From Candidatus Bathyarchaeota archaeon (GTDB taxonomy: Archaea; Thermoproteota; Bathyarchaeia; Bathyarchaeales; Bathycorpusculaceae), in NCBI GenBank assembly GCA_963717465.1, contig OY970340.1, positions 1,376,001-1,440,000 of the forward strand: a stretch of 64,000 nucleotides of DNA. Direction: 5' to 3'. This document shows positions 5,639-30,016 of the stretch, piece after piece (positions within the stretch are counted from its first letter, which is position 1; the number at the start of each line of letters is the position of its first letter). The notes below the pieces were generated by a model. It made no database searches, was not told where the DNA came from, and worked only from the letters and a program-made list of their open reading frames with translations. The translations under genes were made by a program, and so were the position numbers.

Positions 5639-6427
5639 TCAAAGTGCTGAGCTTTTTTTGATTAATGGCACGGCGATTTTTCGGGAAATTTCGCCCCCTA
5701 AATAAATAATTTTAATGTCGACGCCGTAAGTCTCTTTTAGATTGTTTTCAGTCATTACCTCGTCGACATTGCCAATCGCTATGAAAGTCTTATTTTTCAT
5801 CAAAGCGACTTTGTCTGATATATAAAAAGCATGGTCTGGAAAATGTGAGGTCATTACGATACACAATTTCTCTTTAGCAAGTTTTCTTATTAGCTCAATT
5901 GTGCGAACCTGATTAGCAATGTCCAGATGAGAAGTAGGTTCATCTAGCAACAAGATTTCTGGTGCTTGAGCCAAGACTCTTGCAAACAGTACTAGTTGCA
6001 TTTCGCCGCCGCTTAACTTTGTATAAGGCTTATCTCGTAAATGATCAATCTCTAATGTGTGAATCGCTTTTTCAGCAAGTGCGTAATCTTTCTGGGAGGG
6101 TGTCGCTAACAAATTTAAATGTGGGGTCCTACCCATAAGAACTACATCTAATACTTTATAGGGAAATGTCGGCGTATGGGTTTGTGCAATAAAACCGATT
6201 TTCTTAGCTAGGTTGGCTGGAGAAAATAGAGCAATGTCTTTGCCGCCAACTAAAACCTTACCTTTACACATTTTGTACAATCCGCCGACGCATCTTAGCA
6301 AGGTTGATTTTCCAGTTCCGTTTGGACCTAAAATGCAAAAAATTTCTCCTGAGTTTACGGAGAAAGATAAATCTTCAAAAATATTCTTGTTCGGGGTATA
6401 TGCGAACGTGACTTTGTCAGCTTCCAA
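5639..6427 (-). CDS. Iron-siderophore/cobalamin ABC transporter ATPase (FepC-like)
   Basis: GPNGTGKS, LSGGE, LLLDEPTSHLD. Confidence 0.93.
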   Translation of the reverse strand: MEADKVTFAYTPNKNIFEDLSFSVNSGEIFCILGPNGTGKSTLLRCVGGLYKMCKGKVLVGGKDIALFSPANLAKKIGFIAQTHTPTFPYKVLDVVLMGRTPHLNLLATPSQKDYALAEKAIHTLEIDHLRDKPYTKLSGGEMQLVLFARVLAQAPEILLLDEPTSHLDIANQVRTIELIRKLAKEKLCIVMTSHFPDHAFYISDKVALMKNKTFIAIGNVDEVMTENNLKETYGVDIKIIYLGGEISRKIAVPLIKKSSAL

Positions 6428-9031: not shown

Positions 9032-9487
9032 TTATCTTATGCTGCTGAAACTTTTGTGGCCTGATTCTTCTCCGTCTAGAGAGGCGCTGTGGTCTATAAA
9101 TCCTGTTTGAAGTATTGCTCTAAGTTCGCTTCGCAAACGTGATATGTTTTTTGAATAGTTTTTAAGCATTAAGAGTATTTTGCTAAGATTCATTTGCATG
9201 GCAAACATCAAGAGCATCATAAGGCTAACTGAAAGCATTAAGCTGGTTATGGGGTTGATTAAGGCAGTTAGCAAGCCTACAATCGCCACTGCGGAAATAT
9301 AAATTATGCTTTTAACTTTTCGCATACATATCACCAATATTTGGAAGGATAAAGCTTGCTTAAATATTTTATGAAATTGGAAGTATTTAACTAAGCGCCC
9401 AATAGTCGCATGCAATGCTATTTTGAAAGGGTCTGTAATTATTCTTTCGAAAGATGCAATTGCATAACTGGCAACTTCTAAAAGCAC
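9032..9487 (-). CDS. Hypothetical small membrane protein (start uncertain)
   Basis: ORF with two hydrophobic segments in its C-terminal half; no recognisable motif. Confidence 0.4.
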   Translation of the reverse strand: MLLEVASYAIASFERIITDPFKIALHATIGRLVKYFQFHKIFKQALSFQILVICMRKVKSIIYISAVAIVGLLTALINPITSLMLSVSLMMLLMFAMQMNLSKILLMLKNYSKNISRLRSELRAILQTGFIDHSASLDGEESGHKSFSSIR

Positions 9488-10073
9488 TTAGCAATCTGGC
9501 ATTAGTACCCGGCTTTCCCCTAACGTAGCAAGTGCTGAAGCATGGATAGACGAGAAATAGCAAATTAACCCCTCTTTTTTTATTGCACCATTAGTTTCTG
9601 AGCTGTTAAGGCAAGGCAGCTTTTTGAGATGGTAAAAGCGTCGTACCCGTAAAAGCGTGTGTTTGGAAAGTGTAATGCCTGACTTAGTCCTTCAACGAAT
9701 AGATTGTTAGGTAACCATTTTCTTGCTTTAGTGTTAATTTATCCCTTGCAAGAATGGGGTCGAGCACTTTTTTTAGTTGCTCATTTAGATTTGGTTTCAA
9801 TTTTTAGGGAAAAATCGCCTGTTTTGTCTTGGTTTAACGAGATTGAGTTAACATTCAACTGTTTTGAAAGTTCCAAAATCTCGCGTAGTAAAGCTACAGC
9901 TTTTTTCCTATCCAAGTGAGCGTTCTCCTGCTTACTGACATGAAACGAACCTGTTAAAAACCTTTCATAAAAGGGTCTTTTCCTCGCAATTGTTCAACAT
10001 AAATATCCTTGAAGCACTAATCATGATTATAAGTAAACAATGAATAATTAGCCCTTCAAATTTTAAACAAGTT

Positions 10074-10313
10074 ATGGATCGGAACCGGGCAATAGCCGTG
10101 ATTGAGCAGATTTTAGGTAGCTGTGGCTTTTGCAAATCAATAGTACTCCTATTAGATCCAACCGATTGTTCAAAAATCGAGTGTAAGATAAAGATTGATG
10201 CAGATAGCAGCCAAAGGTCTGATATGTTCCAAGCGTGCGTGGAAAAAATCGTTAGAGAAAACGGTTTAGCTATTAGAAAAACAGACGCTTCGTTGATTAT
10301 TTACAAACCCTGA
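10074..10313 (+). CDS. Hypothetical protein
   Basis: 79-aa ORF with ATG start after an AT-rich promoter-like region. Confidence 0.55.
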   Translation: MDRNRAIAVIEQILGSCGFCKSIVLLLDPTDCSKIECKIKIDADSSQRSDMFQACVEKIVRENGLAIRKTDASLIIYKP

Positions 10314-10477
10314 AAGAGAGGAATAACACTAATTTTCAAAGCTCATTAGCGACAGCCTATATTTCCGTTTGGCAAACAAACGCTAAACAACCTTTTACCT
10401 AAATTGGATACTGCCAAGAGATAGACTGCGCGTAACGCAAGTATTATGCCAAGCTCAAAAAGCCAGAGTTTATCCCG

Positions 10478-10503
10478 TGGCGGGCGGGGAGGGATTCGAA
10501 CCC
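10478..10503 (-). repeat. att site: copy of the 3' end of tRNA-Arg(CCT)
   Basis: TGGCGGGCGGGGAGGGATTCGAACCC is identical to 24464-24489 (26 bp direct repeat). Confidence 0.93.
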
Positions 10504-10813
10504 CGGCTTTGCTCGTGATTTCACTCGTAAAACTCCCTTTTTTGTGCGCAGTTGGCGAACATCAGCGGAGGCTAAAACATTTAAACATAGAATTATCAAT
10601 TGCCCACATTGCGGCAAGATCATCCCAGAGTACGTTCTCAAGGGAGAATCAAGAAAGAAATTCAGTGACCTGCCCCGAGTGCGGCAGCCAGAGGAACTGT
10701 GCGCGCTATAATGCAATTAAGCGGAGAACTGCGTCAGAGGTTTAGAATAGCTGACAGCATTGTTTCATGGATAACTTCAGGGCATCCTTGAGAGTCAAGA
10801 AGGCGATTGTAAG

Positions 10814-11566
10814 TTAAACAGTAATTTTTTCCCAATTATTCTTTGAATTTTCAAACAGTCCTTTATAATTCCCATTATGGTATTGTCCAACTATTTTTTG
10901 TCCTGACTTGCTTAGCGGTCCAGTTATTTCTTGGATGCAATAGATAGTCCTATCACCTTTGCTTTTTCCAGACCAACAGCCTATTTCATTAAAATAACTG
11001 AAATCTTCCTTTGCAAAGATATAGTAATCTGCCAATCGGACATCCTTCTGACCAACAATAACTAAAACGATATAGTCAACAGAGCTAAAGGCGCTCTTTC
11101 TTATTGTCGGCGAACTGAAACATTCAACATTCTTGACTATCTCATATCCATGCGGAAATTGAGTTTTAACTTGAATCTTTTTCCCATTCACGACTATATC
11201 AGCCTTAGGGGTTGTGCCACCTAAATAAAGAATGACAGATCGCTTCAGGTGTCTTTGGCAATTGAGCTGCTTCATAGTTAGGCACTCCCCAATTGTGCCT
11301 TTCAAGAAGACTGGAATTTGCATTCTATTTTTGCAGTATAGCTCTTGAAGATCCAAAAGTTTAGAAATTATCTCATCATAGGTTTCATCTCTCCGCGTCT
11401 CTTCAAATAATCGGGTGATACTTTTCTCAGTGACCCTTATGGTATGTCCTCTATTTTTTAGGTCTAATTTCCCTCTGGAGATCAGTGACCGAACTATTCC
11501 TGTGTCACTGAGTTTGAGATTTAGTCGTTGAGCAGTTTCGTTGATTGTGTATACTCTTTCCTGCAT
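10814..11566 (-). CDS. HTH/antitoxin-like N-terminus fused to a PD-(D/E)xK-like nuclease
   Basis: YTINETAQRL (excisionase-like HTH), ETYDEIISKLLD, then GTIGE...PKADIVVNGKKIQVKT (D...QxK). Confidence 0.6.
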   Translation of the reverse strand: MQERVYTINETAQRLNLKLSDTGIVRSLISRGKLDLKNRGHTIRVTEKSITRLFEETRRDETYDEIISKLLDLQELYCKNRMQIPVFLKGTIGECLTMKQLNCQRHLKRSVILYLGGTTPKADIVVNGKKIQVKTQFPHGYEIVKNVECFSSPTIRKSAFSSVDYIVLVIVGQKDVRLADYYIFAKEDFSYFNEIGCWSGKSKGDRTIYCIQEITGPLSKSGQKIVGQYHNGNYKGLFENSKNNWEKITV

Positions 11567-11675
11567 ACCGGTAATTCTCTTGTAGGTTGGATATCTAGTT
11601 TAGCCCTGTCCAACCTTAAGACAGCATAATTCTTTTAAGTGGTTCCTTATCACTTGGTTGTAGAGGAAGCGAGCG

Positions 11676-12353
11676 ATGCTTAAGTATAGCCAACTAGTTC
11701 TTGGTTCCAAAGCTTTTGTTGAGAATGAAAAACGCGATGCCATGTATAGAGTTTCGACCTATCTTATCAACGAATTCTGGGGAAAGCCGGAAGACATCGC
11801 TGATGCTTTAGGAGTCTTGCTTTTAACCTGGAACCAAGCGTTTTATAGATATGGTGGCTTTGACTCTGATGATTTAGAGAGTTGCCTCAAAAAGAATTCA
11901 GCGCTCATTCAGCAATACAGAAATCGAGATATTTTCACTTATGCTCCAAACGATGATAGCCCAATTAGCAAGCTTTTTAATGAAATGCTGATCGCCCTAA
12001 AGACTGATAGGGGAAAAAGTCCTGTGGCAGTCGCAAAAGCACTGCATCTTTTGGCTCCAAATTTCTTTCCCCTATGGGATGCTAAGATTGCAGAAAATGG
12101 ATACGATTGTTATTGGGGCGCTGGCTCTTCGGCGGCAGCACAGAAATATTTGTGCTTAATGAAGAAGACCCAGGTACAAGTAGAAGATATAGTCAAAAGT
12201 TATAGTGAGTTTGGTGTATTGCCTTTGGATGAAAAGCGAGCTACCTTAGTAGATATATGCAAAAGCTGTTCAAACAACCTACCCTTTCAAAAGTCCATCC
12301 TTAAAATAATTGATGAGCATAACTACGCTAAATACACTAAAGGGTGGATTTAA
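11676..12353 (+). CDS. Hypothetical protein with a helix-hairpin-helix glycosylase-like motif
   Basis: SPVAVAKALHLLAPNFFPLWD resembles the HhH/K..H...P..FP.WD signature. Confidence 0.55.
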   Translation: MLKYSQLVLGSKAFVENEKRDAMYRVSTYLINEFWGKPEDIADALGVLLLTWNQAFYRYGGFDSDDLESCLKKNSALIQQYRNRDIFTYAPNDDSPISKLFNEMLIALKTDRGKSPVAVAKALHLLAPNFFPLWDAKIAENGYDCYWGAGSSAAAQKYLCLMKKTQVQVEDIVKSYSEFGVLPLDEKRATLVDICKSCSNNLPFQKSILKIIDEHNYAKYTKGWI

Positions 12354-12695: not shown

Positions 12696-13033
12696 GGTAT
12701 CTCGCCCTTGCTTGCGGTGATCTCGATTTCAAGCTTTATGGGCGTCTTGTCGAACCTTCCTTGAAGGGTCACATTGAACTCCTGTGCAAGTAGAGATGTC
12801 ACCCGCAATTCCCCTTTTTTGTCAAGATACTCATCGGAGCAACTTCTCAATGGTTCCTTCCTGAAGAGTGCAACCTGATAAAATCAAGATGTGCCCATTC
12901 TGGTGCGCAGAGAGAGCGTATTTATGGATTATATCGATCAATATCTGCCACTGGGTGCGCGGAAGATCGAATGGGTTTTTAGATCAGTTAAAGCTTTTAA
13001 ATTTATCAAAGCAATTCTATTGTGTGGTATAGA

Positions 13034-14449
13034 ATGTACATTCGAAACTTGGAACTCAGGAACATAATGTGTTTTGAAGAGGCAGGGTTGAGTTTCACAA
13101 ACCAAAATGGCGAAATAATAAAATGGACCGTAATTCTTGGAGAAAACGGATTTGGAAAGAGCACAATTCTGAAAAATATTGCTCTGTTGCTTGCAGGACA
13201 AGATGCAGCAAGGGAATTACAGCATGAACCCCGCCGTATGGTTAGATTCGGCTGCAAAGAGGCAATTGCTGAAGCAGAAATTGACATGGGAAAAGCCTGT
13301 CCTCAACCAAGAAAAAGATTGAGGTTATCTCTTAATTACGTCGATAAACCCTACGCTGAAGGTTGGGGTGATACTCTCGCAAAGGTGGATCCTAGCAGAG
13401 CGAATTTTGAAGGTTGCCTCAAAGAATGCAGGCGAAGTTTTTTTGTTTGCGGTTATGGAGCAACACGCGTAGTACCACATGAAAAAGATACCAAACGAAT
13501 TCATGCCCTGGAACGCAGAAGCCCTTTTTTTGAAAGGCTTGAGACTCTTTTCATTGATGATTCTCCATTAATGCCTGTTGATGATTGGCTAAGAACGCTC
13601 GAATATAACACGTTAAGAACCAATAAGGCAAGTTCTGCGAAAAACCGGTTTAAAAGTGCAACAGATCTGTTATCCAAGCTTCTCCCTTCTGTGCAGTTTA
13701 AGGAAATTAACGATAACGGCGAAGCTATTTTCAATACGCCTTATGGCGAAGTTTCACTGTCCGAGCTTTCAAGAGGATATCAAGACGTGTTGTCTTGGGT
13801 GTCCGATCTTGCAAGACGTTTGATAGATGCTTTTCCTGATAGCTCTCAACCTCTTGCAGAAGAAGGAATTGTGCTTATCGAAGAAATTTCTCTGCATCTT
13901 CATCCTATTTGGCAAAGAAAAGTAATCGGCTTTTTGCGTAGTCATTTCCCAAATATTCAGTTTATTGCAACAACGCATTCTCCTCTTGTTGCTCAAGCAC
14001 TCCAACGCAACGAATTTGTTGTGTTACAATGTGGACGAAGAAACCGAAGTCATCAAGATACAATTAGAATAACAAGATTAGATCTGGAGCCGAGAGGGTT
14101 GAGTGCGGATCAAATCCTCACGAGTCCGCTCTTTGGTCTTTCATCTTCAAGGTCTGTCGGAAACGAAAGAATAGAGAGCGAGCTTTTCTCACTGAAAAAA
14201 CTTATCAGTAGCGGCGAATCGTCCGAAGACCAGAAGAAACGATATACAGAACTCCTAACGCTTTATGAGAAACAACCAGAAGCACCTGGGACGTCTTATG
14301 ATCAGTATAGACTCTTTCTTAAGCTAAACAAGACTCTTGAGTCATTGGGCAGGACAGATCTGCTTGATTTGCCTCCGTTGAAGTCTCTTGAAGAAAAAAC
14401 CAAAAAGGAAGAAGCCAAAGAAAAGGCAGAGGAAAAGAGCAAGAATTGA
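13034..14449 (+). CDS. Septu PtuA-like ABC/AAA ATPase
   Basis: GENGFGKS Walker A, YGATR, LSRGYQ signature, GIVLIEEISLHLHP.WQR, QFIATTHSP, QILTSPLFGL. Confidence 0.85.
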   Translation: MYIRNLELRNIMCFEEAGLSFTNQNGEIIKWTVILGENGFGKSTILKNIALLLAGQDAARELQHEPRRMVRFGCKEAIAEAEIDMGKACPQPRKRLRLSLNYVDKPYAEGWGDTLAKVDPSRANFEGCLKECRRSFFVCGYGATRVVPHEKDTKRIHALERRSPFFERLETLFIDDSPLMPVDDWLRTLEYNTLRTNKASSAKNRFKSATDLLSKLLPSVQFKEINDNGEAIFNTPYGEVSLSELSRGYQDVLSWVSDLARRLIDAFPDSSQPLAEEGIVLIEEISLHLHPIWQRKVIGFLRSHFPNIQFIATTHSPLVAQALQRNEFVVLQCGRRNRSHQDTIRITRLDLEPRGLSADQILTSPLFGLSSSRSVGNERIESELFSLKKLISSGESSEDQKKRYTELLTLYEKQPEAPGTSYDQYRLFLKLNKTLESLGRTDLLDLPPLKSLEEKTKKEEAKEKAEEKSKN

Positions 14450-15189
14450 TCCGTTATAACCGAAATGGGAATGGAGCAACCCCTCCTGCCCATCTTGTTA
14501 ACTCAAAAAGGATGAGGCAAAACACTGCAAAATTGGAGAAAGAATACACTCTAGCCATAGCCGAAAGCAGGAATATGAAATTTGAGAAAGGAGTTTATGG
14601 AAGTTCTTCTGTCAAAGCTCAACTTATAATTATTAGCTATGGCAAATGTTCATATTGTGATAGTCATGTCGTAGGCGTCGCGTATGGCGATGTCGAGCAC
14701 TTTAGGCCTAAAGCTCATTATTGGTGGCTTGCATACACATGGGAAAACCTCTTGTTCTCATGCCAAATATGCAATCAAGAATATAAGAGAACGAATTTCC
14801 CAGTTGTAGGGAGTAGAGCGAACAAACCGACGGCAGATTTGACTTTGGAACAGCACTTATTGATTAATCCATTGGACGAGGATCCAGAACAACTTATTGC
14901 TTATGATTTTAAGGGAGATGAAGCAAAGATTATAGAGCAAAATTTGCAAGTGAAAGATCGGGTCGATGCATGCAAGAAGTATTTAGGACTAAATCGTGAG
15001 GATTTGCTTCATAGAAGGCGCGGAGTTCTTAGAATTTTAAAAGTATGGTATGCATTTTACCAAGATCCAAGAACCACAACCGGTATAAAGGATGAAATTC
15101 TTTCGGAGATGATTGCAATGGCAAACAATGATTCACAATACGCTGGCATGGTACGCTATTATTTAAGACATTGGGGCTTAATACCTTAG
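14446..15189 (+). CDS. Septu PtuB-like HNH endonuclease
   Basis: GKCSYCD...DVEHFRPK...LAYTWENLLFSCQICN..YK; LLINP; LNREDL; 4-bp overlap with the ATPase. Confidence 0.88.
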   Translation: MIRYNRNGNGATPPAHLVNSKRMRQNTAKLEKEYTLAIAESRNMKFEKGVYGSSSVKAQLIIISYGKCSYCDSHVVGVAYGDVEHFRPKAHYWWLAYTWENLLFSCQICNQEYKRTNFPVVGSRANKPTADLTLEQHLLINPLDEDPEQLIAYDFKGDEAKIIEQNLQVKDRVDACKKYLGLNREDLLHRRRGVLRILKVWYAFYQDPRTTTGIKDEILSEMIAMANNDSQYAGMVRYYLRHWGLIP

Positions 15190-15622: not shown

Positions 15623-15831
15623 AACAGCCATGCGCGCTAGTTTCAAGTTTGCCTAGTTAATTAAAAGCAAAACTCAAACTAATAGAAGTAGCTTTCTTTC
15701 TAATGATTTTAATATGAAGTGCTTCGAATAATGAAAAGCGTTTAATAGTTAATCGGTGGATATGGACACAATCGATAGATGAGGGACCAAAAATAATAAA
15801 CATTAATTCAGTTCTTTCACGCTATTCGAGA

Positions 15832-17478
15832 GTGGAACAAAGAGAATACCAAAAAGCTTGTATCAAAGATATAGTGAATGCATTGAATGATAGTTCTGAT
15901 GCGTTAATTGCCCTTCCAACAGGCACAGGAAAGACCGTTGTTTTCAGTCCTGTAGTTGCAGAAAGCAGAGAAAACAATTCAAGGACGCTAGTTCTTGGTG
16001 CCACAAAACAAGCGCAAAGCCGAATTGAGCGTGAAATAAAGCGCTTCCTGTCTTCAGGAGATACGAAACTTGTTTTTGGTGTCGAAGAATACGATTGCCC
16101 TTTGTTAAAAAGCAAGGCTGAAAGTTGGTATTGTAGGGAAAATAAGGTTGAATGCAAAAAATTGAATATATCCTGCGCGGTCATTCAATCTGAAAAAGAT
16201 TATCATGATAAACCACTTGTGATCACTAATTTCTCCAAGTTTCTTTTAGCTCAAGGAGGTGGTAGTTATGATTTTATTGTGCTGGACGATTCACATAGCT
16301 TTGAGAATGCAAAGGAACAAGCCTACCAGCTGACTATTCAGGCTGCCGATGGCAATAGCCTATACGAAAAGGGAATAAGCAACGATAAGATCAAGGCATT
16401 TGTTGAAGATTTTTTAAATATTTTCGCACAGGCATTTGAGCGTTGCTTAAATCCGAGCGACAAGGATGGAGTTGGAGTCGTCAGTCCTGATTATATTGCA
16501 CATTTCGCATCGCTCTCAACCAAGCATGATTCAGAAAAACTAAAAAAAGAAATCGGAGGGATGCTTGCAGGCAAAGATCGCAAGGTTTGCTTGAATATGT
16601 ACTATTTCGTTATGCATTGCACTAAAGCAAGCAGATACGAGTTTTTTGTAAGAAGCGACTTCTATAATCGCGAGTGGATAGATAGCGAGCTAATTTCTAG
16701 GCAAGTCGAAGTGGATTATCTTATAAAAAGTAAGTTTGGAAATAGCGCGATCATATATGCAACTGCAACTCCAGGTGACGCATTCAAACACGCGAATTCT
16801 TGCTCGTTACGTAATTATGATGATTCAAATTTGAAAATAACACCGATAGAGAAATTCGAGCAGGTTGAGAACTGGTTTAAAAATCTAAATATCTTGGTTG
16901 TGACGGATATCGGTGATACAAGAGAAACTGGTCCGTTTGATTCAGCACTTAATCTCACGACTGAAATACTCACAAAGAGAAATGAACGCTCATTAATTTT
17001 ATTTAAAAACTATAGGGATCAAAGGAAAGCTAACGAACGCTTGAAGGGTCTTTTTTCTCCTAATCGACTATTCTTCTTAGATTCAACAATAGATAATAGC
17101 GATTTCGTTGAAAATCTAGCTAGCAAAAGTCAAATATCTCTTGCTTCAGCTTCATCCACGTTATGGGAGGGAATAAACATTCAAAGTCTAAGAATTGCTA
17201 TCATAACTACAGCACCTTTTATTCGACCTATCGCGGGCAAAAAAATGAATTATCCTGATCTTGAGCGCAGAATGCTTATACGACTACAGCAAGGTATTGG
17301 TAGAATAATAAGAAGCGAATCTGATTTTGGTGTATCGATTTTAATGGATAGTCGGTTTCAAGGGTACGTCAAGAAAAAATACTTTGACAAACGTCTTCTC
17401 AATAGGACCAAGTTTGTTACAGCTGATCAAGTTATGCCAATAATCACCGAAGTACTTGAAAAAGGAGCTAAAGAATAA
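15832..17478 (+). CDS. DinG/XPD-like SF2 helicase with a putative Fe-S cluster
   Basis: Q motif REYQ, PTGTGKT, four Cys (CPLL..WYC..VEC..ISC), LDDSH, ATAT, LWEGINI, QQGIGRIIRSESDFG...DSRF. Confidence 0.85.
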   Translation: MEQREYQKACIKDIVNALNDSSDALIALPTGTGKTVVFSPVVAESRENNSRTLVLGATKQAQSRIEREIKRFLSSGDTKLVFGVEEYDCPLLKSKAESWYCRENKVECKKLNISCAVIQSEKDYHDKPLVITNFSKFLLAQGGGSYDFIVLDDSHSFENAKEQAYQLTIQAADGNSLYEKGISNDKIKAFVEDFLNIFAQAFERCLNPSDKDGVGVVSPDYIAHFASLSTKHDSEKLKKEIGGMLAGKDRKVCLNMYYFVMHCTKASRYEFFVRSDFYNREWIDSELISRQVEVDYLIKSKFGNSAIIYATATPGDAFKHANSCSLRNYDDSNLKITPIEKFEQVENWFKNLNILVVTDIGDTRETGPFDSALNLTTEILTKRNERSLILFKNYRDQRKANERLKGLFSPNRLFFLDSTIDNSDFVENLASKSQISLASASSTLWEGINIQSLRIAIITTAPFIRPIAGKKMNYPDLERRMLIRLQQGIGRIIRSESDFGVSILMDSRFQGYVKKKYFDKRLLNRTKFVTADQVMPIITEVLEKGAKE

Positions 17479-19757
17479 TGTATCACGCAAATGCTTTTCC
17501 CCTTCTTAAAAGTGACGGATTGCCAGTTTTTGTTTATGCAACTGCTATAGAGCCCAAACCAGTCAACAATCCACAATACTATCAAATCTTAGGAGTTATT
17601 GCAAAAAAAATTATGTTTGAACAATGTATCCCCGTAGTCTCAATCGATGGTTATATTCAAAGCCTCCCCGATCGAATAAGCAGTTCTTTAGTTTATGACG
17701 TTGATATTCCAAATATTGGGAAGTTTAAAGTTAAGTTGGCTGAGATGAGCAAATCAATTGTCGGCATTGACGATTTCGAAAACTATTCTCATCTTGTATG
17801 CCGCTTAGCTGACATAGCACTAACCGTTTATTCAGATCAATATTACAAGTTTCACCCTAAAGCGCCATTTATTATAAGAGATGAACCTTATTTTGACTTA
17901 GATCTAATAGGCAAGACGGGGATAATCGACTCCAAGAGTTACTATAGAGGTTTATTTCAAATAAGCAATAAGCCAGTTTTTGTTTTGAACAGAGAAACTC
18001 AACTTAGATCAAACAAGAACTTGCTTGTTGAAATGAAAAGTCTGGCTAAATCTTTTGAGGAGAAAAATCAAGGGAAGAACATTGACTTTTATGATCCCCC
18101 TTCAGAGTTCATGGGCTACGTTAATAATTTGATTCGAGAAAAGGCGGCTGACATAGCAAGGTCAAGTTATCCAGGTCCGAAAGTGGAAAAAATTGAAGCG
18201 GTCACTTGGAAATTTAGGGCAGGTGAAAAAACACCAGGAGCAGAAGGAACGCCAATTGATTACTTGCACAATACATATGGAATCAATGGTTTAGACCCTC
18301 GACAACCGCTTGTTGTTTACACTGTGCAAGGAAGAACACAGTATCATATTCCTGAAGTTCTCTCTTTAGGGCACACGTTTGAGGATTTAGCAAAAAGAAT
18401 TCCAGAGTGGCAAAGAAGCCAGGTCTGGGGAGATATTCATCCGGATTGCAAAAATCAACTGCACAAAATCTATGAGGTTCTTTTAGAAATCGATTCGACG
18501 CTGCGGAAGTGCCTGCCTGAAGTTTATCCCAAGTTTGTTGAAATATCAAGGGACCCATTAGACATCTCTAACGATGTCTCCGAACCTAATGAAATAGGTA
18601 TTCAGTTCGCGGATAAGGCAATAAAAATAAAGCCACCATACGATCTCAGTTTTTATCGAAACTATTCTGGAAAGAAGAATTTGTTTGCAAGAGTAATCCC
18701 TAACTCCAAGATATTGGTTTGTTCCGACAGGGTTAATTCTAAGATTAAGAAGTTCTTGGCCAAGTTAGCAGCTGAGTATAAAATAAGAAACGGTTCTGAC
18801 ATTACTTACGATTTCGGACCGCTTGATCCACTTAAGAATAAATTTGCAAATTATCAAATAGTTTTAACCATTAGTACCGAGTCGCAAGACGATGAGAAAT
18901 TATATACTTGGTATAAGAAAACCTTACAAAATGAAATGGGCATACCTCATCAGCATATTACTGTAGAAAATGCCGATGATAATTCTGTTATGCAAATAGT
19001 CATGCAAATATGTCTGAAGTTGGGTGGCGATCCTTGGCTACTGCCTGAGATGTTAAATATTGATTGCGTTTTTGGAATTAATAGTTATTTGAACCCTCAG
19101 ACAGCAAGAGCAGAGATTTCAATGCTCTTAACTGATGCCGCGGGAAAACTAATAACTCAATTAGACCCTATCGATTGTTCAAACGCAGATAGAATCATTG
19201 AAACTATTAAAGAATTGGCTGGCAAATATCGAAGAGTTCTTTTTCTAACAACGTTTGATAGGTCAGGTTTAATTGATAAGATAAAAACATCGTTAGATAT
19301 TTTGGCAAGCGAGTATTGTATTGTCACAGTTATTGATAACAACTATTTTCGATTTTTCGAAACATATTCCCCTCGACATGCGCCGAGATTTGGCAAGACA
19401 GTTTTGGAAGTAGCTAAATGCTCTATCGAAGCTATTGAAAATGCACCTCAAGGTCACATCTTTAAGTGCCAACCAGACATCTACTACTTGCTTACCGGAA
19501 AGACAATTGAAAAAGGTCTGTCTAAACGAGGGTGCCCTTTACCGATAAAAATCGAAATAAAATGTGTAAAAGGACAAAATTGGGACAAAATGGAACTTGC
19601 CAAATATATTATGGCGTTGTGCATGATGGGAAGAGCAAGTGGCCATATGACAAGGTTTCCGATGCCCCTCTATTATCTTCAGCTTAGCGAATACTACTAC
19701 AACAGGTTCGGAGTCCCTAAGGATGCAAAACTCAAGAAATCAATTTTCTACATCTAG
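17478..19757 (+). CDS. ago: Long Argonaute/PIWI protein (N-L1-PAZ-L2-MID-PIWI), probably slicer-inactive
   Basis: PAZ DYLHNTYG...DPRQPLV...HIPEVL; MID LYTWYKK...GIPHQ...QICLKLGGDPW; PIWI FGINS, NAPQG, RGCPLP, TRFPMPLYY; C-terminal SIFYI. Confidence 0.9.
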   Translation: MYHANAFPLLKSDGLPVFVYATAIEPKPVNNPQYYQILGVIAKKIMFEQCIPVVSIDGYIQSLPDRISSSLVYDVDIPNIGKFKVKLAEMSKSIVGIDDFENYSHLVCRLADIALTVYSDQYYKFHPKAPFIIRDEPYFDLDLIGKTGIIDSKSYYRGLFQISNKPVFVLNRETQLRSNKNLLVEMKSLAKSFEEKNQGKNIDFYDPPSEFMGYVNNLIREKAADIARSSYPGPKVEKIEAVTWKFRAGEKTPGAEGTPIDYLHNTYGINGLDPRQPLVVYTVQGRTQYHIPEVLSLGHTFEDLAKRIPEWQRSQVWGDIHPDCKNQLHKIYEVLLEIDSTLRKCLPEVYPKFVEISRDPLDISNDVSEPNEIGIQFADKAIKIKPPYDLSFYRNYSGKKNLFARVIPNSKILVCSDRVNSKIKKFLAKLAAEYKIRNGSDITYDFGPLDPLKNKFANYQIVLTISTESQDDEKLYTWYKKTLQNEMGIPHQHITVENADDNSVMQIVMQICLKLGGDPWLLPEMLNIDCVFGINSYLNPQTARAEISMLLTDAAGKLITQLDPIDCSNADRIIETIKELAGKYRRVLFLTTFDRSGLIDKIKTSLDILASEYCIVTVIDNNYFRFFETYSPRHAPRFGKTVLEVAKCSIEAIENAPQGHIFKCQPDIYYLLTGKTIEKGLSKRGCPLPIKIEIKCVKGQNWDKMELAKYIMALCMMGRASGHMTRFPMPLYYLQLSEYYYNRFGVPKDAKLKKSIFYI

Positions 19758-21096
19758 TATTTCTAATTTTAAACAATGGTTAACGGAATTAGAGCGGTGT
19801 TCCAAGAAGTACCAAAAATATGGGTCCTTAAAACCGACACAAGTACAACTACTTGAGCAGGTATTCACGAATATAATTTCAAATAAGTACAAGGTTGTTA
19901 GCTATACCGCTCCTCCTTCATCAGGAAAGACCCATGTTATAGCTCTTTGTTCCTCTTACTTGTGTAAAAATGGGTTTGATACATGCATAGTTACGCCAAA
20001 CGGCGAATTAAAGTCCGATTTCGCCAAAGAAATGCTGGAAGTAGATGTAGGAATTAAACTTTCAATTCCAATCGAATCCATAAGCAGTTACCGCAAGAAA
20101 AAAGAGAATTTTGACTACGTATTTGTTGATGAAGCTCACAATCTTCGTTCATCGATAGAAATAGACGAATCTATAGTTAAAACCTTCCATTTTGAAGAAG
20201 GCGAAGAGCTTTTTGATTTCGTGACTTCAGGAGTTGACCAGAAGAATTATGTTGTTAGGGAGTTAGGGATAGAAAGCTCTTCAGAAATATTACATAAAAT
20301 GTTAGAGATCGAACCTTTTAAAAAAGACGCAAGAAATCTCCTTAGGAAGCTCACTCAATGGAGGGCTTTCTACATTGGATATCAAAAATCTTGCAGTCTA
20401 AGGTTCCTTTTAGTCGATCCTCAAAAAAGGAGCATATTACCAAAAGGCAGATTGTTCTTGTTTTCAGCAACACGATTGGAAGAGAGAGAACTTACATTTT
20501 ATTGTAATATTCCTCCTGATTGTCTCATAACAATCGGAGAAAAAAAGACCCGCTTTGTTCCAAAAGAGAATATTCATTACAGCTTCTTGCATCTAGAAAA
20601 TAATGATGCGAAGATTGCAGCTTCTTTCGCATTATTAAATATGGCTAGAGTGCGAACACTAATTTTGCTTAATAACAATTGCAATTGTTTATTATGGAAA
20701 AATGCGCTTAATAAGAAATTTGCCGATAGACTGACAGTTGTGCAGTCAGGTTTAACATATTTAGAAAGAATGAAGGCTTTTAAAACGTTTGATGAAGGTG
20801 ACGCAAAAATACTCGTAACCTCTTCAAATGTTTACTGGGAAGGCATAACGATAAAGAATTTGAAATTACTTATTATTCCATATAATCCATTTCCCCAACC
20901 GTCAATTATTGAACTATCCGAGCGAAAAAACCCTGATTACCAAAAAATAGCAAACAGGCGTTTGGTCCAAGGCATAGGTCGCATTGGCAGGAAACCTGAA
21001 GAAACAGGTCTATGCGTTTTGCTTTTCCGTCCATCGAAAATGTTTCGATACGTTAAAGAAAGCACTTTAATAGAGCTTCTAAAGTTGTATTTGTGA
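19723..21096 (+). CDS. Second DinG-like SF2 helicase (compact, no obvious Fe-S Cys cluster)
   Basis: LKPTQ, APPSSGKT, VDEAHNL, FSAT, YWEGITI, PFP, VQGIGRIGR. Confidence 0.85.
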   Translation: MQNSRNQFSTSSISNFKQWLTELERCSKKYQKYGSLKPTQVQLLEQVFTNIISNKYKVVSYTAPPSSGKTHVIALCSSYLCKNGFDTCIVTPNGELKSDFAKEMLEVDVGIKLSIPIESISSYRKKKENFDYVFVDEAHNLRSSIEIDESIVKTFHFEEGEELFDFVTSGVDQKNYVVRELGIESSSEILHKMLEIEPFKKDARNLLRKLTQWRAFYIGYQKSCSLRFLLVDPQKRSILPKGRLFLFSATRLEERELTFYCNIPPDCLITIGEKKTRFVPKENIHYSFLHLENNDAKIAASFALLNMARVRTLILLNNNCNCLLWKNALNKKFADRLTVVQSGLTYLERMKAFKTFDEGDAKILVTSSNVYWEGITIKNLKLLIIPYNPFPQPSIIELSERKNPDYQKIANRRLVQGIGRIGRKPEETGLCVLLFRPSKMFRYVKESTLIELLKLYL

Positions 21097-21313: not shown

Positions 21314-22387
21314 TCATTTTAATAGCTTCCGTTTCTCAAAATCCTTGGTTCCTTCGTAGCATGCTTTTCTCTTTATATAGTGGTCTACTGAACAGTTGGA
21401 ATAACTGACACAAGCGTCAATATTTTCCATTAGTGGTGTTATCTTTAAAATCTTATTTTTAATATAGTTGTTAAGATCAGTCTTGCTAGCATTGGGCAAA
21501 TAATTGATGAAATCGCGGAAAGCCCAATAATAACGTATAAAATTTATTTCATCCAATGCGAGGTTTTCTATATCGCGTTCATGCCATTTGAGGATGTGTG
21601 GCTCAATTGTTTTGTTTTTTACTTCCTTCTTGACTGCCCTGATAAGTTCGCGAACGTGTCTTTGCAGTGTGCTCATGTGCATGACTTTGACTCCCGTGAA
21701 AAGGCTGATATTCTTCTTTATTTTTTTCTTGAATTCTGGGACAAGTAGGATTAACTGATCTTGTAGGAAATATGAAAGCAGAGGTAAGAATACATTATCC
21801 CTTGTCTCTCCGAATAGATTAGATTGGGCATTATAATATCCCGCCTTATCATGCAAGGTTACACTACTATCCTGAACCATCGAAAGTGGATGAACAACGG
21901 TGTCTGAATTCAATTTGACTATAGTTGGGAAATCATCGTAATAATTTCCGCTTAATAAAATGGGACAGTTCTCTTTGTAGTGCCCGAGCAGTAAAACGCC
22001 AAGTTTATTGTTTTTTTGCACTTGTTCATACAAACCTGCAAGAAAATACGTATTGAGCTTCTCAAAAGGATAATCAAATCCACCTTTGAATGACAAAACG
22101 AGTGAGCACTCCGAGTTTTTTTTCTCGTGCTCGATTTTTGCTTTAAACATGTCGACATAGTCTTCGCCAGCTTCACTTAAAATTTTAACAATATCGAGTC
22201 CATTGAGTTCTTGAGGCAAGTGAATTACGGTCTCTACTAAAGAAGATGTATCCTCTTTAAAACTGGTTCTAACAGTGAAAGCTTTCTCAACCTCTAGAAT
22301 GTATTCGTCATCAGTGATTTTTTTCCATCCAAATCTATCCGTAAACTCACGGATCATTTTGTCCAAATTATTAATCATATTAATCAC
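21314..22387 (-). CDS. Hypothetical protein (357 aa)
   Basis: Long intact ORF; no motif recognised. Confidence 0.7.
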   Translation of the reverse strand: MINMINNLDKMIREFTDRFGWKKITDDEYILEVEKAFTVRTSFKEDTSSLVETVIHLPQELNGLDIVKILSEAGEDYVDMFKAKIEHEKKNSECSLVLSFKGGFDYPFEKLNTYFLAGLYEQVQKNNKLGVLLLGHYKENCPILLSGNYYDDFPTIVKLNSDTVVHPLSMVQDSSVTLHDKAGYYNAQSNLFGETRDNVFLPLLSYFLQDQLILLVPEFKKKIKKNISLFTGVKVMHMSTLQRHVRELIRAVKKEVKNKTIEPHILKWHERDIENLALDEINFIRYYWAFRDFINYLPNASKTDLNNYIKNKILKITPLMENIDACVSYSNCSVDHYIKRKACYEGTKDFEKRKLLK

Positions 22388-22809
22388 AAATTAAACATAA
22401 TTTGCGCTCCAATATTTAATAATTTCGTAAGGCAATAATCAAATTGAATGCTAGACAATACGTATGAAAAATGGCTTAAAAGAGTATCGCGTCAGCCCAT
22501 GCGCGATGCAACTGGCGCAGCACCTACTGAAAGCCAATTCACCGGGATTTCTCCGATTTTCGCCACGTTCGTCCTGCTGGGATGCTCACCAGCGATACGA
22601 TCGTCCGTGCCGAAATCCGTTCGGCATATCCATTTTTTCTTTCGCCTGTAGGACTTGCAGGACAAGGTTTTGGTTAATGTTTTCCTTCCGACCCTTTCTG
22701 AAACAAAGGTCAAAAAGTGTGCCTCGCAGGTCTCACAAATGAACGACTTTTGCAGCCGTGTTGGCCTCGGCTACGTAAGTTGTCAGCTGGTACCGCTTGG
22801 TCAATTGCT

Positions 22810-23123
22810 AGGGGCTTTGTGCAGGAGAGGCTTTCGCTACCGGATCCATTATGACGGAGACAGGACTGACATAGCCTTCCCAAGCAAAAAGGTGGCAGTA
22901 TTCATAGATGGCTGCTTTTGGCATGAGTGCCCCATTCACTCCCATCAACCAAAGTCAAACCGAGCTTATTGGCTGCCAAAATTGAAAAAGAATATTCAAG
23001 AGACACTCCAACAAATGAGCGATTAAACGCTGAAGGGAGAGTAGTTTGCGATTTTGGGAGCATGAGATAGATGATATAGATTGCATTGTTAACAGAATTG
23101 CGGCTGCACTAAATTCAAATTGA
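22810..23123 (+). pseudogene. vsr: Vsr very-short-patch repair endonuclease, truncated and frameshifted
   Basis: GFRYR...DIAFPSKKVAVFIDGCFWH.CP.H...PKSNRAYWLPKLKKN, then LRFWEHE in another frame. Confidence 0.85.
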
Positions 23124-28693: not shown

Positions 28694-30016
28694 TTAGCTA
28701 GAATTTACAGTTAAAGCTTTTCTACTGTTCCAGGCTGCAATTAAACAAGCTGATGCACTAGGATCTAAAGAAGTGGATAAGTAGTACTTGACCGTTTTTT
28801 CGTCAAACTTGTGGCCTTCAAAAGTTTGGTTCTTGCTGTTCCAAATTATCGTCCCTTCTTCATTCCTCTCCTTAAAAGTTCCAATACTTTCATGAAAAGC
28901 TCGATGAGAAAAGACGATAGCTGTAAGTATTTCAGGTTTTAAGCTAAGGGGGTCAATTATAAATCCCAAAAAGAAAAGTTTGATCTTACCCTCTTTCCTT
29001 AACTGATTAAACTCCTTAAAAGGTGAATCGTTATCCCAATCAATTTCGTATCTTATCTTTTCACTTGAAATGCTTGGGTTAATTAATTCCTCGTAATATT
29101 CCCGCATAATAGTTTTCCAAATATCAAAATCCTTCTCAATCATCACATCCGAATCTGATGAAGGCTGAAATTCACCCGCAGGAACAATATGCATTAACCC
29201 TTCCCCAATCGCTACATCTCTCGAACTTCGTTGATGCAAAATGAAACGGTAATCACCATCCTGCTGAAAAAGTGTGATTGCTTCAACACCCAAACCCGAA
29301 CAACGAGCACCTAGCTCAACAGGGTTACCAAATGCTTTTCTAGCTTTAAGAGTGTCCCACTTCATTTTTTTCCCAGATTTTCGAGTTTGAATCTCTTTTC
29401 TGGCGCTCTCATAAGCGAGGGCTTCTAAAGTGCTAAACGAGTCAAAATATTTCCCAAGTCGAAATATCAACTCGTAATCTTTTCCAATTTCTATGTCCGT
29501 TATTCTATAATGTGGCATATCCCACCAAAGTCTAGGCTTGTCAAGTTTGCCTACCATATCACTGTATCTCGTCAACTTGGACTCACTGTAGTTTTTCGGC
29601 CACAAATATTCAAAAGCTTTCTCTGCGCCCTTTAATCCGCATTCTTCGAAGCATTCGGTTCTGTTCTCCACAATTTTTTTATCAGAATTCCAATTTTGAT
29701 CCTTCAAAACTTCAACTCTGTCCAGAGTGATCGCAGGATTCGGAACCCATCCAGCCTTCGTCAAAACAAAAGCATTAAACATTTTGCCTTCCAACTTGCA
29801 TTCTAACCTTGTATAGCCAACAGAATTCTTCACGTAAAAATCAAAAGCTTCCTTTGTCAATTTAAGACGATTTTGTTTTAAATAACGTCTAGCCTGCAAA
29901 AATGCTTCTTTTTCTCTTTGCATTCGCGTTCTCTTTATGTTCGGATAACCAAAGTAGATAGCGACAACAAGACTAATAATAGCAAGAACAATTGGAAATG
30001 CACTTAACCAATCCAC
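28694..30016 (-). CDS. Membrane-anchored protein with a divergent Nudix-like domain
   Basis: N-terminal TM; LHQRSS.DVA...HIVPAGEFQPS...DFDIWKTIMREYYEEL. Confidence 0.65.
   Translation of the reverse strand: MDWLSAFPIVLAIISLVVAIYFGYPNIKRTRMQREKEAFLQARRYLKQNRLKLTKEAFDFYVKNSVGYTRLECKLEGKMFNAFVLTKAGWVPNPAITLDRVEVLKDQNWNSDKKIVENRTECFEECGLKGAEKAFEYLWPKNYSESKLTRYSDMVGKLDKPRLWWDMPHYRITDIEIGKDYELIFRLGKYFDSFSTLEALAYESARKEIQTRKSGKKMKWDTLKARKAFGNPVELGARCSGLGVEAITLFQQDGDYRFILHQRSSRDVAIGEGLMHIVPAGEFQPSSDSDVMIEKDFDIWKTIMREYYEELINPSISSEKIRYEIDWDNDSPFKEFNQLRKEGKIKLFFLGFIIDPLSLKPEILTAIVFSHRAFHESIGTFKERNEEGTIIWNSKNQTFEGHKFDEKTVKYYLSTSLDPSASACLIAAWNSRKALTVNSS

Follow-up and report, generated by a model that had tools for sequence, protein, structure and literature searches.

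The 64,000-nucleotide stretch of DNA analysed in this work (positions 1,376,001 to 1,440,000 of contig OY970340.1, assembly GCA_963717465.1, from a Candidatus Bathyarchaeota archaeon; hereinafter referred to as the window) harbors, on its forward strand, three overlapping genes encoding a helicase (Hel1), a long Argonaute, and a second helicase (Hel2). The triad is a real, conserved, and mobile module in which no nuclease can be recognized, and it has the appearance of a guided immune system of a type not described so far. On balance, it is probable that the three genes form an autonomous unit, spread by horizontal transfer, which interferes with invaders under the direction of a guide (defence), working without a nuclease and using XPD-type helicases as effectors. 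The evidence concerns the linkage and distribution of the genes, the residues retained and lost by the Argonaute, and the nature of the two helicases.

Conservation and distribution of the triad

The organization of the three genes was analysed in a set of 36 places (three genome loci, 32 metagenome loci, and the window itself), the number of independent loci being lower because some of them are near-duplicates (L001/L005/L006, L002/L010, and L015/L016). The hel1 gene is located directly upstream of the Argonaute gene in all the 32 places in which upstream DNA is available, the other four ending at a contig edge; hel2 is located directly downstream of it in 28 of the 33 places with downstream DNA. 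The five loci without hel2 (L020 and L022–L025) form a single subclade, whose Argonautes are 37–40% identical to that of the window. Since Hel2 is missing from these loci, the conserved core of the module is the Hel1–Argonaute pair and not the pair of helicases. The search for the same triad in other organisms, suggested in the initial annotation, thus bears out its conservation across related archaea and the Hel1–Argonaute linkage, Hel2 being dispensable in one subclade. No recurring gene replaces hel2 in these five loci, whose neighbours include threonine-dehydratase-like, DsrE, peptidase M54, and beta-CASP genes; in just one of them (L022), a gene with a NucS_C/PD-(D/E)xK domain lies 350 nt downstream. 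The clustering of all the flanking open reading frames (ORFs) did not disclose any other conserved neighbour in more than six loci, the recurring ones being short overlapping frames.

The Argonaute profile was also searched against 1.84 billion protein representatives, which gave 122 matches with E ≤ 1e-3, many of them fragments. Only 24 representatives reached E ≤ 1e-30, which marks a small family, set apart from others by its sequence. It comprises 44 clusters at 90% identity, that of the window included, and the names attached to them are only those of Bathyarchaeota/Bathyarchaeia and Thaumarchaeota. Profile searches of 401 evenly sampled genomes of the phylum retrieved the Argonaute in two genomes (one of which is that of the window), Hel2 in the same two, and Hel1 in the same two plus one weak, partial match at the C-terminus. 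The presence of all three proteins in the same two genomes indicates that, in this sample, the helicases are dedicated to the Argonaute. The triad is found in only one of the ten sampled genus mates. This genome (G318) has only the region 15783–21084 in common with the window, the flanks being unrelated, which means that the triad moves as a cassette. No relative was found among viral contigs. Lastly, in 21 non-duplicate related loci, 16 out of 126 flanking ORFs, distributed across nine loci, match PADLOC defence models with E ≤ 1e-10 (type I, II, and IIG restriction-modification, DrmD, TmtA, LmuB, GajB-like, and PDC-S70), a rate that is suggestive only, because it was counted without a background control.

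This distribution bears on one of the possible alternative explanations, according to which the triad might be a genome-maintenance or regulatory module, in which the Argonaute would mark the sites where R-loops or replication/transcription conflicts are resolved, or where host genes are silenced. XPD/DinG helicases are classically described as repair and R-loop enzymes (PMC3702460), and the pair of the Hel2-less subclade is embedded among housekeeping genes. Nevertheless, the very patchy distribution (two of the 401 genomes and one of the ten genus mates), the cassette-like transfer between unrelated flanks, and the frequent presence of defence genes as neighbours speak against this possibility; since they fit accessory defence genes and not housekeeping ones, a maintenance role appears very improbable.

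The Argonaute: fold, active site, and guide pocket

As a single sequence, the protein encoded by the middle gene matches the Pfam families Piwi (E 1.3e-5) and PAZ (E 0.019), both below the Pfam cut-off; among the PADLOC models, it matches pAgo (E 1.7e-25) and, over residues 76–535, PprPIWI (E 4.6e-22). Its AlphaFold2 model, built from an alignment of 30 family members, reached a predicted local distance difference test (pLDDT) score of 88.3 and a predicted template modelling (pTM) score of 0.85. Using residues 1–759 of this model as a query, Foldseek retrieved the structures of PIWI proteins (Hili and Mili), of hAgo, and of HrAgo1, with E about 1e-34 and TM about 0.7; in VIA, about 650–680 residues of the model were aligned with Z of 24–26 and a root mean square deviation of 4–8 Å, all the rows being tied. 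Since these matches extend over the full length of the protein, the protein is a complete N-L1-PAZ-L2-MID-PIWI Argonaute, that is, a long Argonaute endowed with all the Argonaute domains. When the 30 family members were searched against Pfam, Piwi was found in all of them, PAZ in 14, and ArgoN in two; the family profile also matches the PAZ domains of PIWI proteins in the PDB.

The DEDX catalytic tetrad was read at its first, third, and fourth positions. The column of the first catalytic aspartate, which lies in a GxDV motif in active Argonautes, is occupied by N, H, or Y in all the 30 members; the third aspartate is mostly kept, and at the fourth position, where active Argonautes carry H or D, the residue found is Q, R, K, or H. 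The DEDX tetrad that defines slicer-active proteins of the long-A type is therefore not found in this family, and the Argonaute is predicted to be catalytically inactive. A different picture emerges for the binding of the guide: the MID pocket residues Y476-x3-K480-x11-Q492...K514 align with the Y-K-Q-K set of 45 other Argonautes, and K480 and Q492 are present in all the 30 members, Y476 in 26, and K514 in 28 of them. Judging from these residues, the pocket accommodating the 5'-phosphate of a guide is conserved.

Phylogenetic placement of the Argonaute

In the search of the Argonaute profile against the PDB, all the matches with E ≤ 0.01 belong to the PIWI clade (Hili, E 6e-11, followed by Mili, sponge Piwi, Siwi, Miwi, and fly Piwi), and they cover both the PAZ and the PIWI regions. 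Beyond the family itself, the library matches are three proteins (P0069, P0076, and P0079), followed mostly by eukaryote-type sequences with strong Pfam matches to Piwi, PAZ, and Piwi_N. The three proteins represent the nearest outgroup (E 1e-29 to 1e-13) and are long Argonautes of about 775–785 aa, except for P0076 (587 aa); their catalytic residues are partly altered (GLDVYH/FRHG/YAD, GLEIYH/IREG/HAH, and GIDVFH).

The MID-PIWI region was also used to build a maximum-likelihood tree with 56 rows, i.e., 11 family members, two intermediates, 24 eukaryote-type sequences, nine weak matches, and ten Thermoproteota prokaryotic Argonautes (pAgos); P0076, which is truncated, was left out of it, and the rows include no named long-A, long-B, or long-C reference. 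The analysis of the tree revealed that the family is monophyletic (Shimodaira–Hasegawa-like approximate likelihood ratio test, SH-aLRT, 100), with a long stem of 1.82, and that the proteins of the nearest outgroup group together (SH-aLRT 99), apart from all the other groups. On the basis of its sequences, the family is thus a distinct clade. The branch by which it joins the other groups is as short as 0.062 and leads to open forks; for this reason, a specific sister relationship with eukaryotic PIWI proteins is not claimed, even though the best matches belong to the PIWI clade.

The two helicases

Both the neighbours of the Argonaute match Helicase_C_2, the C-terminal domain of XPD/DinG helicases, above the Pfam cut-off of 25.3 bits (59.3 bits for Hel1 and 30.9 for Hel2), and the best PADLOC match of both is typeIV_DinG (E 6.2e-28 and 2e-12, respectively). 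As for Hel1, the E-value for Helicase_C_2 is 6.3e-16, ResIII is matched with E 2.2e-12, and the best PDB match of its profile is archaeal XPD (E 4e-19). In its 21 orthologues, the Walker A motif (GTGKT) and motifs Ia, III (TATPG), V, and VI (QQGIGRxxR) are all invariant. The same is true for four cysteines (C89, C101, C108, and C115), located between motifs Ia and II, that is, in the position of the iron–sulfur domain of XPD and DinG. These features, along with an arch-like insert, identify Hel1 as an XPD/DinG-family helicase with an iron–sulfur-type four-cysteine insert, possibly holding a cluster. The XPD-type iron–sulfur helicases are a family of enzymes translocating in the 5'→3' direction. 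A peculiarity of Hel1 is that motif II reads DDSH, and not DEAH, in 21 out of 21 orthologues (16285–16296 in the window, residues 152–155); this motif aligns with the DEAH of Hel2 and is also kept in the subclade devoid of Hel2. In one metagenome locus (L029, 813–2494), two overlapping frames of 372 and 220 aa take the place of an intact Hel1, owing to a frameshift in this copy or to an error in the sequencing.

Hel2 keeps the motifs GKTH, DEAH, FSAT, WEG, and QGxGRxGR unchanged throughout its 18 orthologues, and the four-cysteine set is absent. The comparison of the two profiles with hhalign (probability 99.8%, E 3.5e-28) covers the whole helicase core and leaves a gap in Hel2 facing the cysteine insert of Hel1, which shows that Hel2 is a paralogue of Hel1 without the cluster insert. 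The model of Hel2 (pLDDT 86.3) is closest, in Foldseek, to XPD, CasDinG, and DinG (E 2e-16 to 1e-14), and only helicase structures were found among its matches. Judging from Walker A and motifs III, V, and VI, which do not vary in either protein, both helicases look functional. No nuclease family was matched by Hel1 or Hel2 in Pfam, PADLOC, or NCBIfam; moreover, the two proteins (548 and 457 aa, respectively) are occupied by the helicase core and its inserts, leaving no room for a nuclease domain. These data, together with those on the middle protein, corroborate the initial description of the triad as an inactive, PAZ-containing Argonaute (confidently modelled as such, matched over its full length by Foldseek, and devoid of the first catalytic aspartate in every member) flanked by two nuclease-less XPD/DinG-like helicases.

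The nature of the helicases is also relevant to the main rival of the interference reading, according to which they might act before the Argonaute, by unwinding or processing a duplex for the making and loading of guides, or by removing the passenger strand, with the Argonaute silencing its target simply by binding. The hrAgo1 gene of Asgard archaea is flanked by genes encoding an RNase III and a helicase, for which a role in guide generation has been proposed (PMC11217426). Furthermore, when the sequence profile of Hel2 is searched against the PDB, the best-scoring matches are DEAD-box RNA helicases (E 1.5e-9), and the absence of a nuclease effector makes silencing by binding alone conceivable. 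On the other hand, no nuclease able to cut guides is linked to the triad, fold and profile place both proteins nearest to the DNA helicases of the XPD/DinG family, and in DdmDE, the nearest described system (see below), the DinG-like helicase is the effector. For these reasons, guide biogenesis appears unlikely as the task of the two helicases.

Predicted complex and proposed mechanism

The interaction between the two proteins of the conserved core was modelled using residues 310–759 of the Argonaute and full-length Hel1, together with three controls. The prediction scored 0.53, 0.57, and 0.59 (median 0.57), a result classified as "weak support", while the best of the controls scored 0.00; the runs agree in at least 83% of the contacts, and the pLDDT of the partner is at least 82. 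In the calibration of the tool, the mark was reached by 116 out of 157 solved complexes and by two out of 215 mismatched pairs; scores up to 0.60 include only 18 of the passing solved complexes, plus both the passing mismatches. The weak pass, the strict linkage, and the one-base overlap between the two genes modestly raise the odds that the Argonaute binds Hel1. Thus, the modelling of the Argonaute with its helicases, suggested in the initial annotation, yields a weak pass for this pair.

The analysis establishes the fold of the proteins, the loss of the catalytic site and the persistence of the pocket for the guide in the Argonaute, the motifs of the helicases, the strict linkage of the genes, their scattered occurrence, and their movement as a cassette. 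How guides are loaded, what is targeted, how the helicases are recruited, and that defence ensues are inferred in the following scheme. The Argonaute would bind a small 5'-phosphorylated guide, whose 5' and 3' ends would be held by the MID pocket and by PAZ, respectively. Once loaded, it would locate complementary nucleic acid of an invader without being able to cut it, and it would act as the targeting subunit for the XPD-type iron–sulfur helicase Hel1, to which it is probably bound. Hel1, once on the target, might unwind or strip the DNA or the R-loops of the invader, thereby blocking its replication or transcription, or exposing it to host nucleases; where present, Hel2 would act in the same way.

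A number of observations weigh against such a scheme. The destruction of the invader would be left unexplained, because no component contains a recognizable nuclease, and the helicases could serve the production of guides rather than act as effectors. With DDSH instead of DEAH, Hel1 may have a weak ATPase activity, or a specialised one. The prediction for the Argonaute and Hel1 is only a weak pass, obtained with an Argonaute cut to its residues 310–759. Finally, 12 of the 21 related loci do not have any PADLOC defence neighbour, and the Hel1–Argonaute pair of the Hel2-less subclade is located among ordinary metabolic genes.

Comparison with known systems

The triad shares a theme with several described systems, and fails a defining feature of each of them. 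The closest resemblance is with DdmDE of Vibrio cholerae and ApsAB of E. coli ST38, two anti-plasmid systems that also combine an inactive Argonaute or Argonaute-like protein with a DinG/XPD-type helicase of superfamily 2. DdmD is described as a cluster-free helicase resembling DinG/XPD, which carries a fused PD-(D/E)xK nuclease and is recruited by the inactive DdmE, a "long-C" pAgo without a canonical PAZ which, once loaded with a guide, brings the helicase to the target (10.1101/2024.05.10.593530). In ApsAB, a helicase-nuclease is associated with an Argonaute-like protein reported to have no recognizable PIWI or PAZ (PMC11096173). The differences, as far as these descriptions go, are the following: (i) the C-terminal PD-(D/E)xK nuclease of DdmD and ApsA, whose fusion to the helicase defines these systems, is absent from both Hel1 and Hel2; (ii) the Argonaute of the triad has PIWI and PAZ, whereas DdmE is described without a canonical PAZ and ApsB without either in recognizable form; (iii) the triad has two helicases, one with four cysteines, in place of the single DdmD, whose insert does not hold a cluster; and (iv) the triad comes from archaea, DdmDE and ApsAB from bacteria. 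The PADLOC matches of the triad do not include any model with the name Ddm.

The pPIWI-RE system is a bacterial operon in which a restriction endonuclease (REase), a DinG-type helicase, and a PIWI protein are encoded, the family of the latter overlapping the Pfam entries DUF3893 and DUF3962 (Burroughs et al. 2013, PMC3702460). Just like the triad, it is a three-gene operon with a PIWI-superfamily protein and a Cys-rich helicase of the DinG type; in contrast, the order of the triad is helicase–Argonaute–helicase, with PAZ present, and that of pPIWI-RE, described as bacterial, is REase–helicase–PIWI. None of the 30 Argonaute family members matches DUF3893 or DUF3962 at E ≤ 0.1 in Pfam, and neither an REase nor any other third family is conserved among the 36 places; the assignment of the triad to pPIWI-RE is thus rejected. 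If its proposed function is correct, the triad would add an archaeal, PAZ-containing branch to the group in which an Argonaute-like protein is paired with a DinG-like helicase (DdmDE, ApsAB, and pPIWI-RE).

A further parallel can be drawn with type IV-A CRISPR-Cas, where a guide-directed complex works with a DinG-family helicase in place of a nuclease (10.1101/2023.06.23.546257). The resemblance lies in the helicases, since typeIV_DinG is the best PADLOC match of both Hel1 and Hel2 and the fold of Hel2 matches that of CasDinG, an enzyme not known to hold an iron–sulfur cluster; the difference lies in the targeting, which relies on a Cas/CRISPR RNA (crRNA) complex in type IV-A and would rely on the Argonaute in the triad. 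The Csf/Cas genes and the CRISPR array that accompany DinG in type IV-A are missing from the locus: tandem or spaced repeats were not found between 8 and 32 kb of the window, and apart from the typeIV_DinG matches, PADLOC did not reveal any cas-type protein among the three proteins of the triad and the 19 neighbouring ORFs. By analogy, the triad may parallel both DdmE recruiting DdmD and the type IV-A complex equipped with DinG instead of a nuclease. A bolder proposition, which we regard as possible but doubtful, is that it represents the Argonaute counterpart of type IV-A, i.e., a nuclease-free immunity in which a dead, guide-loaded Argonaute aims XPD-type helicases at invading DNA, the Argonaute belonging to an unnamed, deep, long clade so far restricted to Bathyarchaeia and Thaumarchaeota and having eukaryotic PIWI proteins as its best outside matches. 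If this were true, a PIWI-like protein with dedicated helicases would have been already present in TACK archaea.

Inactive Argonautes are also found in the long-B systems. In the one named BPAN, the inactive long pAgo senses its target and then recruits, at its MID/PIWI face, a separately encoded nuclease (PMC13535254); the effector described there is a nuclease, whereas helicases are the sole partners in the triad. In systems of this kind (inactive long-B and short pAgos), effectors are activated by the binding of the target, and the outcome is described as abortive infection (PMC13535254 and PMC11096173). On these grounds, it might be supposed that target recognition by the triad sets free an uncontrolled helicase/ATPase activity that harms the host cell; nevertheless, the sequences bear no sign of toxicity. 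Moreover, we know of no helicase acting as a toxic effector, and an abortive infection of this type has, in our opinion, the slightest chance among the explanations considered. Sir2 or a membrane protein are the effectors of other long-B systems. To our knowledge, all the characterised systems based on an inactive Argonaute pass the target to a destructive effector, be it a nuclease, an NADase, or a membrane protein. Should the interference reading be correct, a system having helicases as its only partners would show that Argonaute-guided immunity can be achieved by unwinding/displacement alone, or through a host factor yet to be found. In addition, the Argonaute of the triad is of interest as a programmable binder of small size, coupled to a helicase and open to direct testing.

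Among archaeal proteins, HrAgo1 from an Asgard archaeon is described as an active RNA-guided slicer with eukaryote-like features, encoded in the locus rnc–hrAgo1–helicase (PMC11217426). This locus resembles the triad in that an archaeal Argonaute lies beside a helicase gene, and HrAgo1 is one of the full-length fold matches; compared with this description, the Argonaute of the triad is predicted to be inactive, does not have an RNase III neighbour, and is accompanied by helicases of the XPD/DinG type. Helicases in pAgo operons were reported by Ryazansky et al. 2018 (PMC6299218) as UvrD- and DEAD-type orthogroups, the main text mentioning neither DinG nor PIWI-RE. A survey of archaeal defence systems (PMC12988326) lists Argonautes predicted by Padloc and left unclassified by DefenseFinder, and the portion of it considered here does not describe helicase partners for them. 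A full-text literature search, which did not cover subscription-only papers, yielded no description of a helicase–Argonaute–helicase triad. The initial suggestion that no catalogued system corresponds to the triad therefore stands for the systems compared here, in view of the Pfam matches and gene order that separate it from pPIWI-RE and of the missing DdmDE/ApsAB nuclease domain.

Gene layout and putative promoter

The features of the locus are reported in Table 1. At the junction between hel1 and the Argonaute gene (GAATAATGTAT), the stop codon TAA and the start codon ATG share one base (TAATG), and the ATG of hel2 is located 35 nt within the Argonaute gene; GGAG-like sequences precede both internal starts. 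The three overlapping ORFs of the forward strand are arranged as initially annotated. Upstream of hel1, a promoter-like motif (AAAAGnnTTTAATA) could be aligned in six of 12 upstream regions (those of the window, L001, L004, L007, L008, and L010), and the TTTAATA sequence of the window is a putative promoter of hel1. A search for sequencing runs, of RNA or of DNA, returned none for the locus.

Table 1. Coordinates (in the window) of the genes of the triad and of the features next to it.
Feature	Position	Strand	Remarks
Hel1, XPD/DinG-family helicase of superfamily 2 (predicted)	15793..17478	+	listed ORF 15832-17478, 548 aa, GTG start
Argonaute, long N-L1-PAZ-L2-MID-PIWI; predicted catalytically inactive, 5'-phosphate pocket retained	17478..19757	+	759 aa
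Hel2, compact XPD/DinG-like helicase; Hel1 paralogue, canonical DEAH, without Cys-rich insert	19723..21096	+	457 aa
Archaeal promoter-like motif (B recognition element (BRE)/TATA-like), TTTAATA after AAAAG, 5' of hel1 (putative)	15741..15747	+	
Septu system (context, outside the triad)	13022..15189	+	PtuA 13022-14449, PADLOC E 1.8e-88; PtuB 14446-15189, E 2.1e-53

The start of hel1 deserves a comment. By homology, it falls 13 codons upstream of the GTG at 15832, i.e., at 15793, where the window has ATA; in the same position, ATG is found in L007, L008, and G318, GTG in L004, and ACG in L001 (about 6300–6350). In the window, the peptide specified by the 13 codons between 15793 and the GTG (IINSVLSRYSR) has remained conserved, the ATA is preceded by GAGG at a distance of 8 nt, and in the Hel1 profile search of the genomes, the alignment of the window begins at 15796. 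Either a near-cognate start would be used in the window or initiation would have shifted to the GTG at 15832.

Genomic context

The Septu system that the initial annotation placed beside the triad is indeed there, immediately upstream, as its PADLOC matches in Table 1 testify; its vicinity to the triad is not conserved in the other loci. The same annotation considered the region as a tRNA-integrated island, an idea that has to be discarded, because in the 64 kb of the window ARAGORN found no tRNA gene and Rfam no family, and no direct repeat of note flanks the triad. The G+C content drops to 0.36–0.38 over 14–22 kb, compared with about 0.40–0.43 on either side, and the window lies on a single contig of 3.05 Mb. 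The borders of a possible island were searched for in the genus mates using two flanking proteins, which retrieved only paralogues with at most 50% identity.

Around Septu and the triad (9032–12353, 21314–22387, and 28694–30016), several ORFs of 150–440 aa did not match Pfam, PADLOC, or NCBIfam; the low-G+C stretch may thus contain additional accessory genes. Downstream of the triad (22655–23026), an ORF of 123 aa partially matches the profile of the Vsr very-short-patch endonuclease (positions 30–69 of 74); since no methyltransferase is seen next to it, it may be the remnant of a restriction-modification system. In another locus (L003), the triad is preceded by a complete Vsr gene together with one for a type II methyltransferase.

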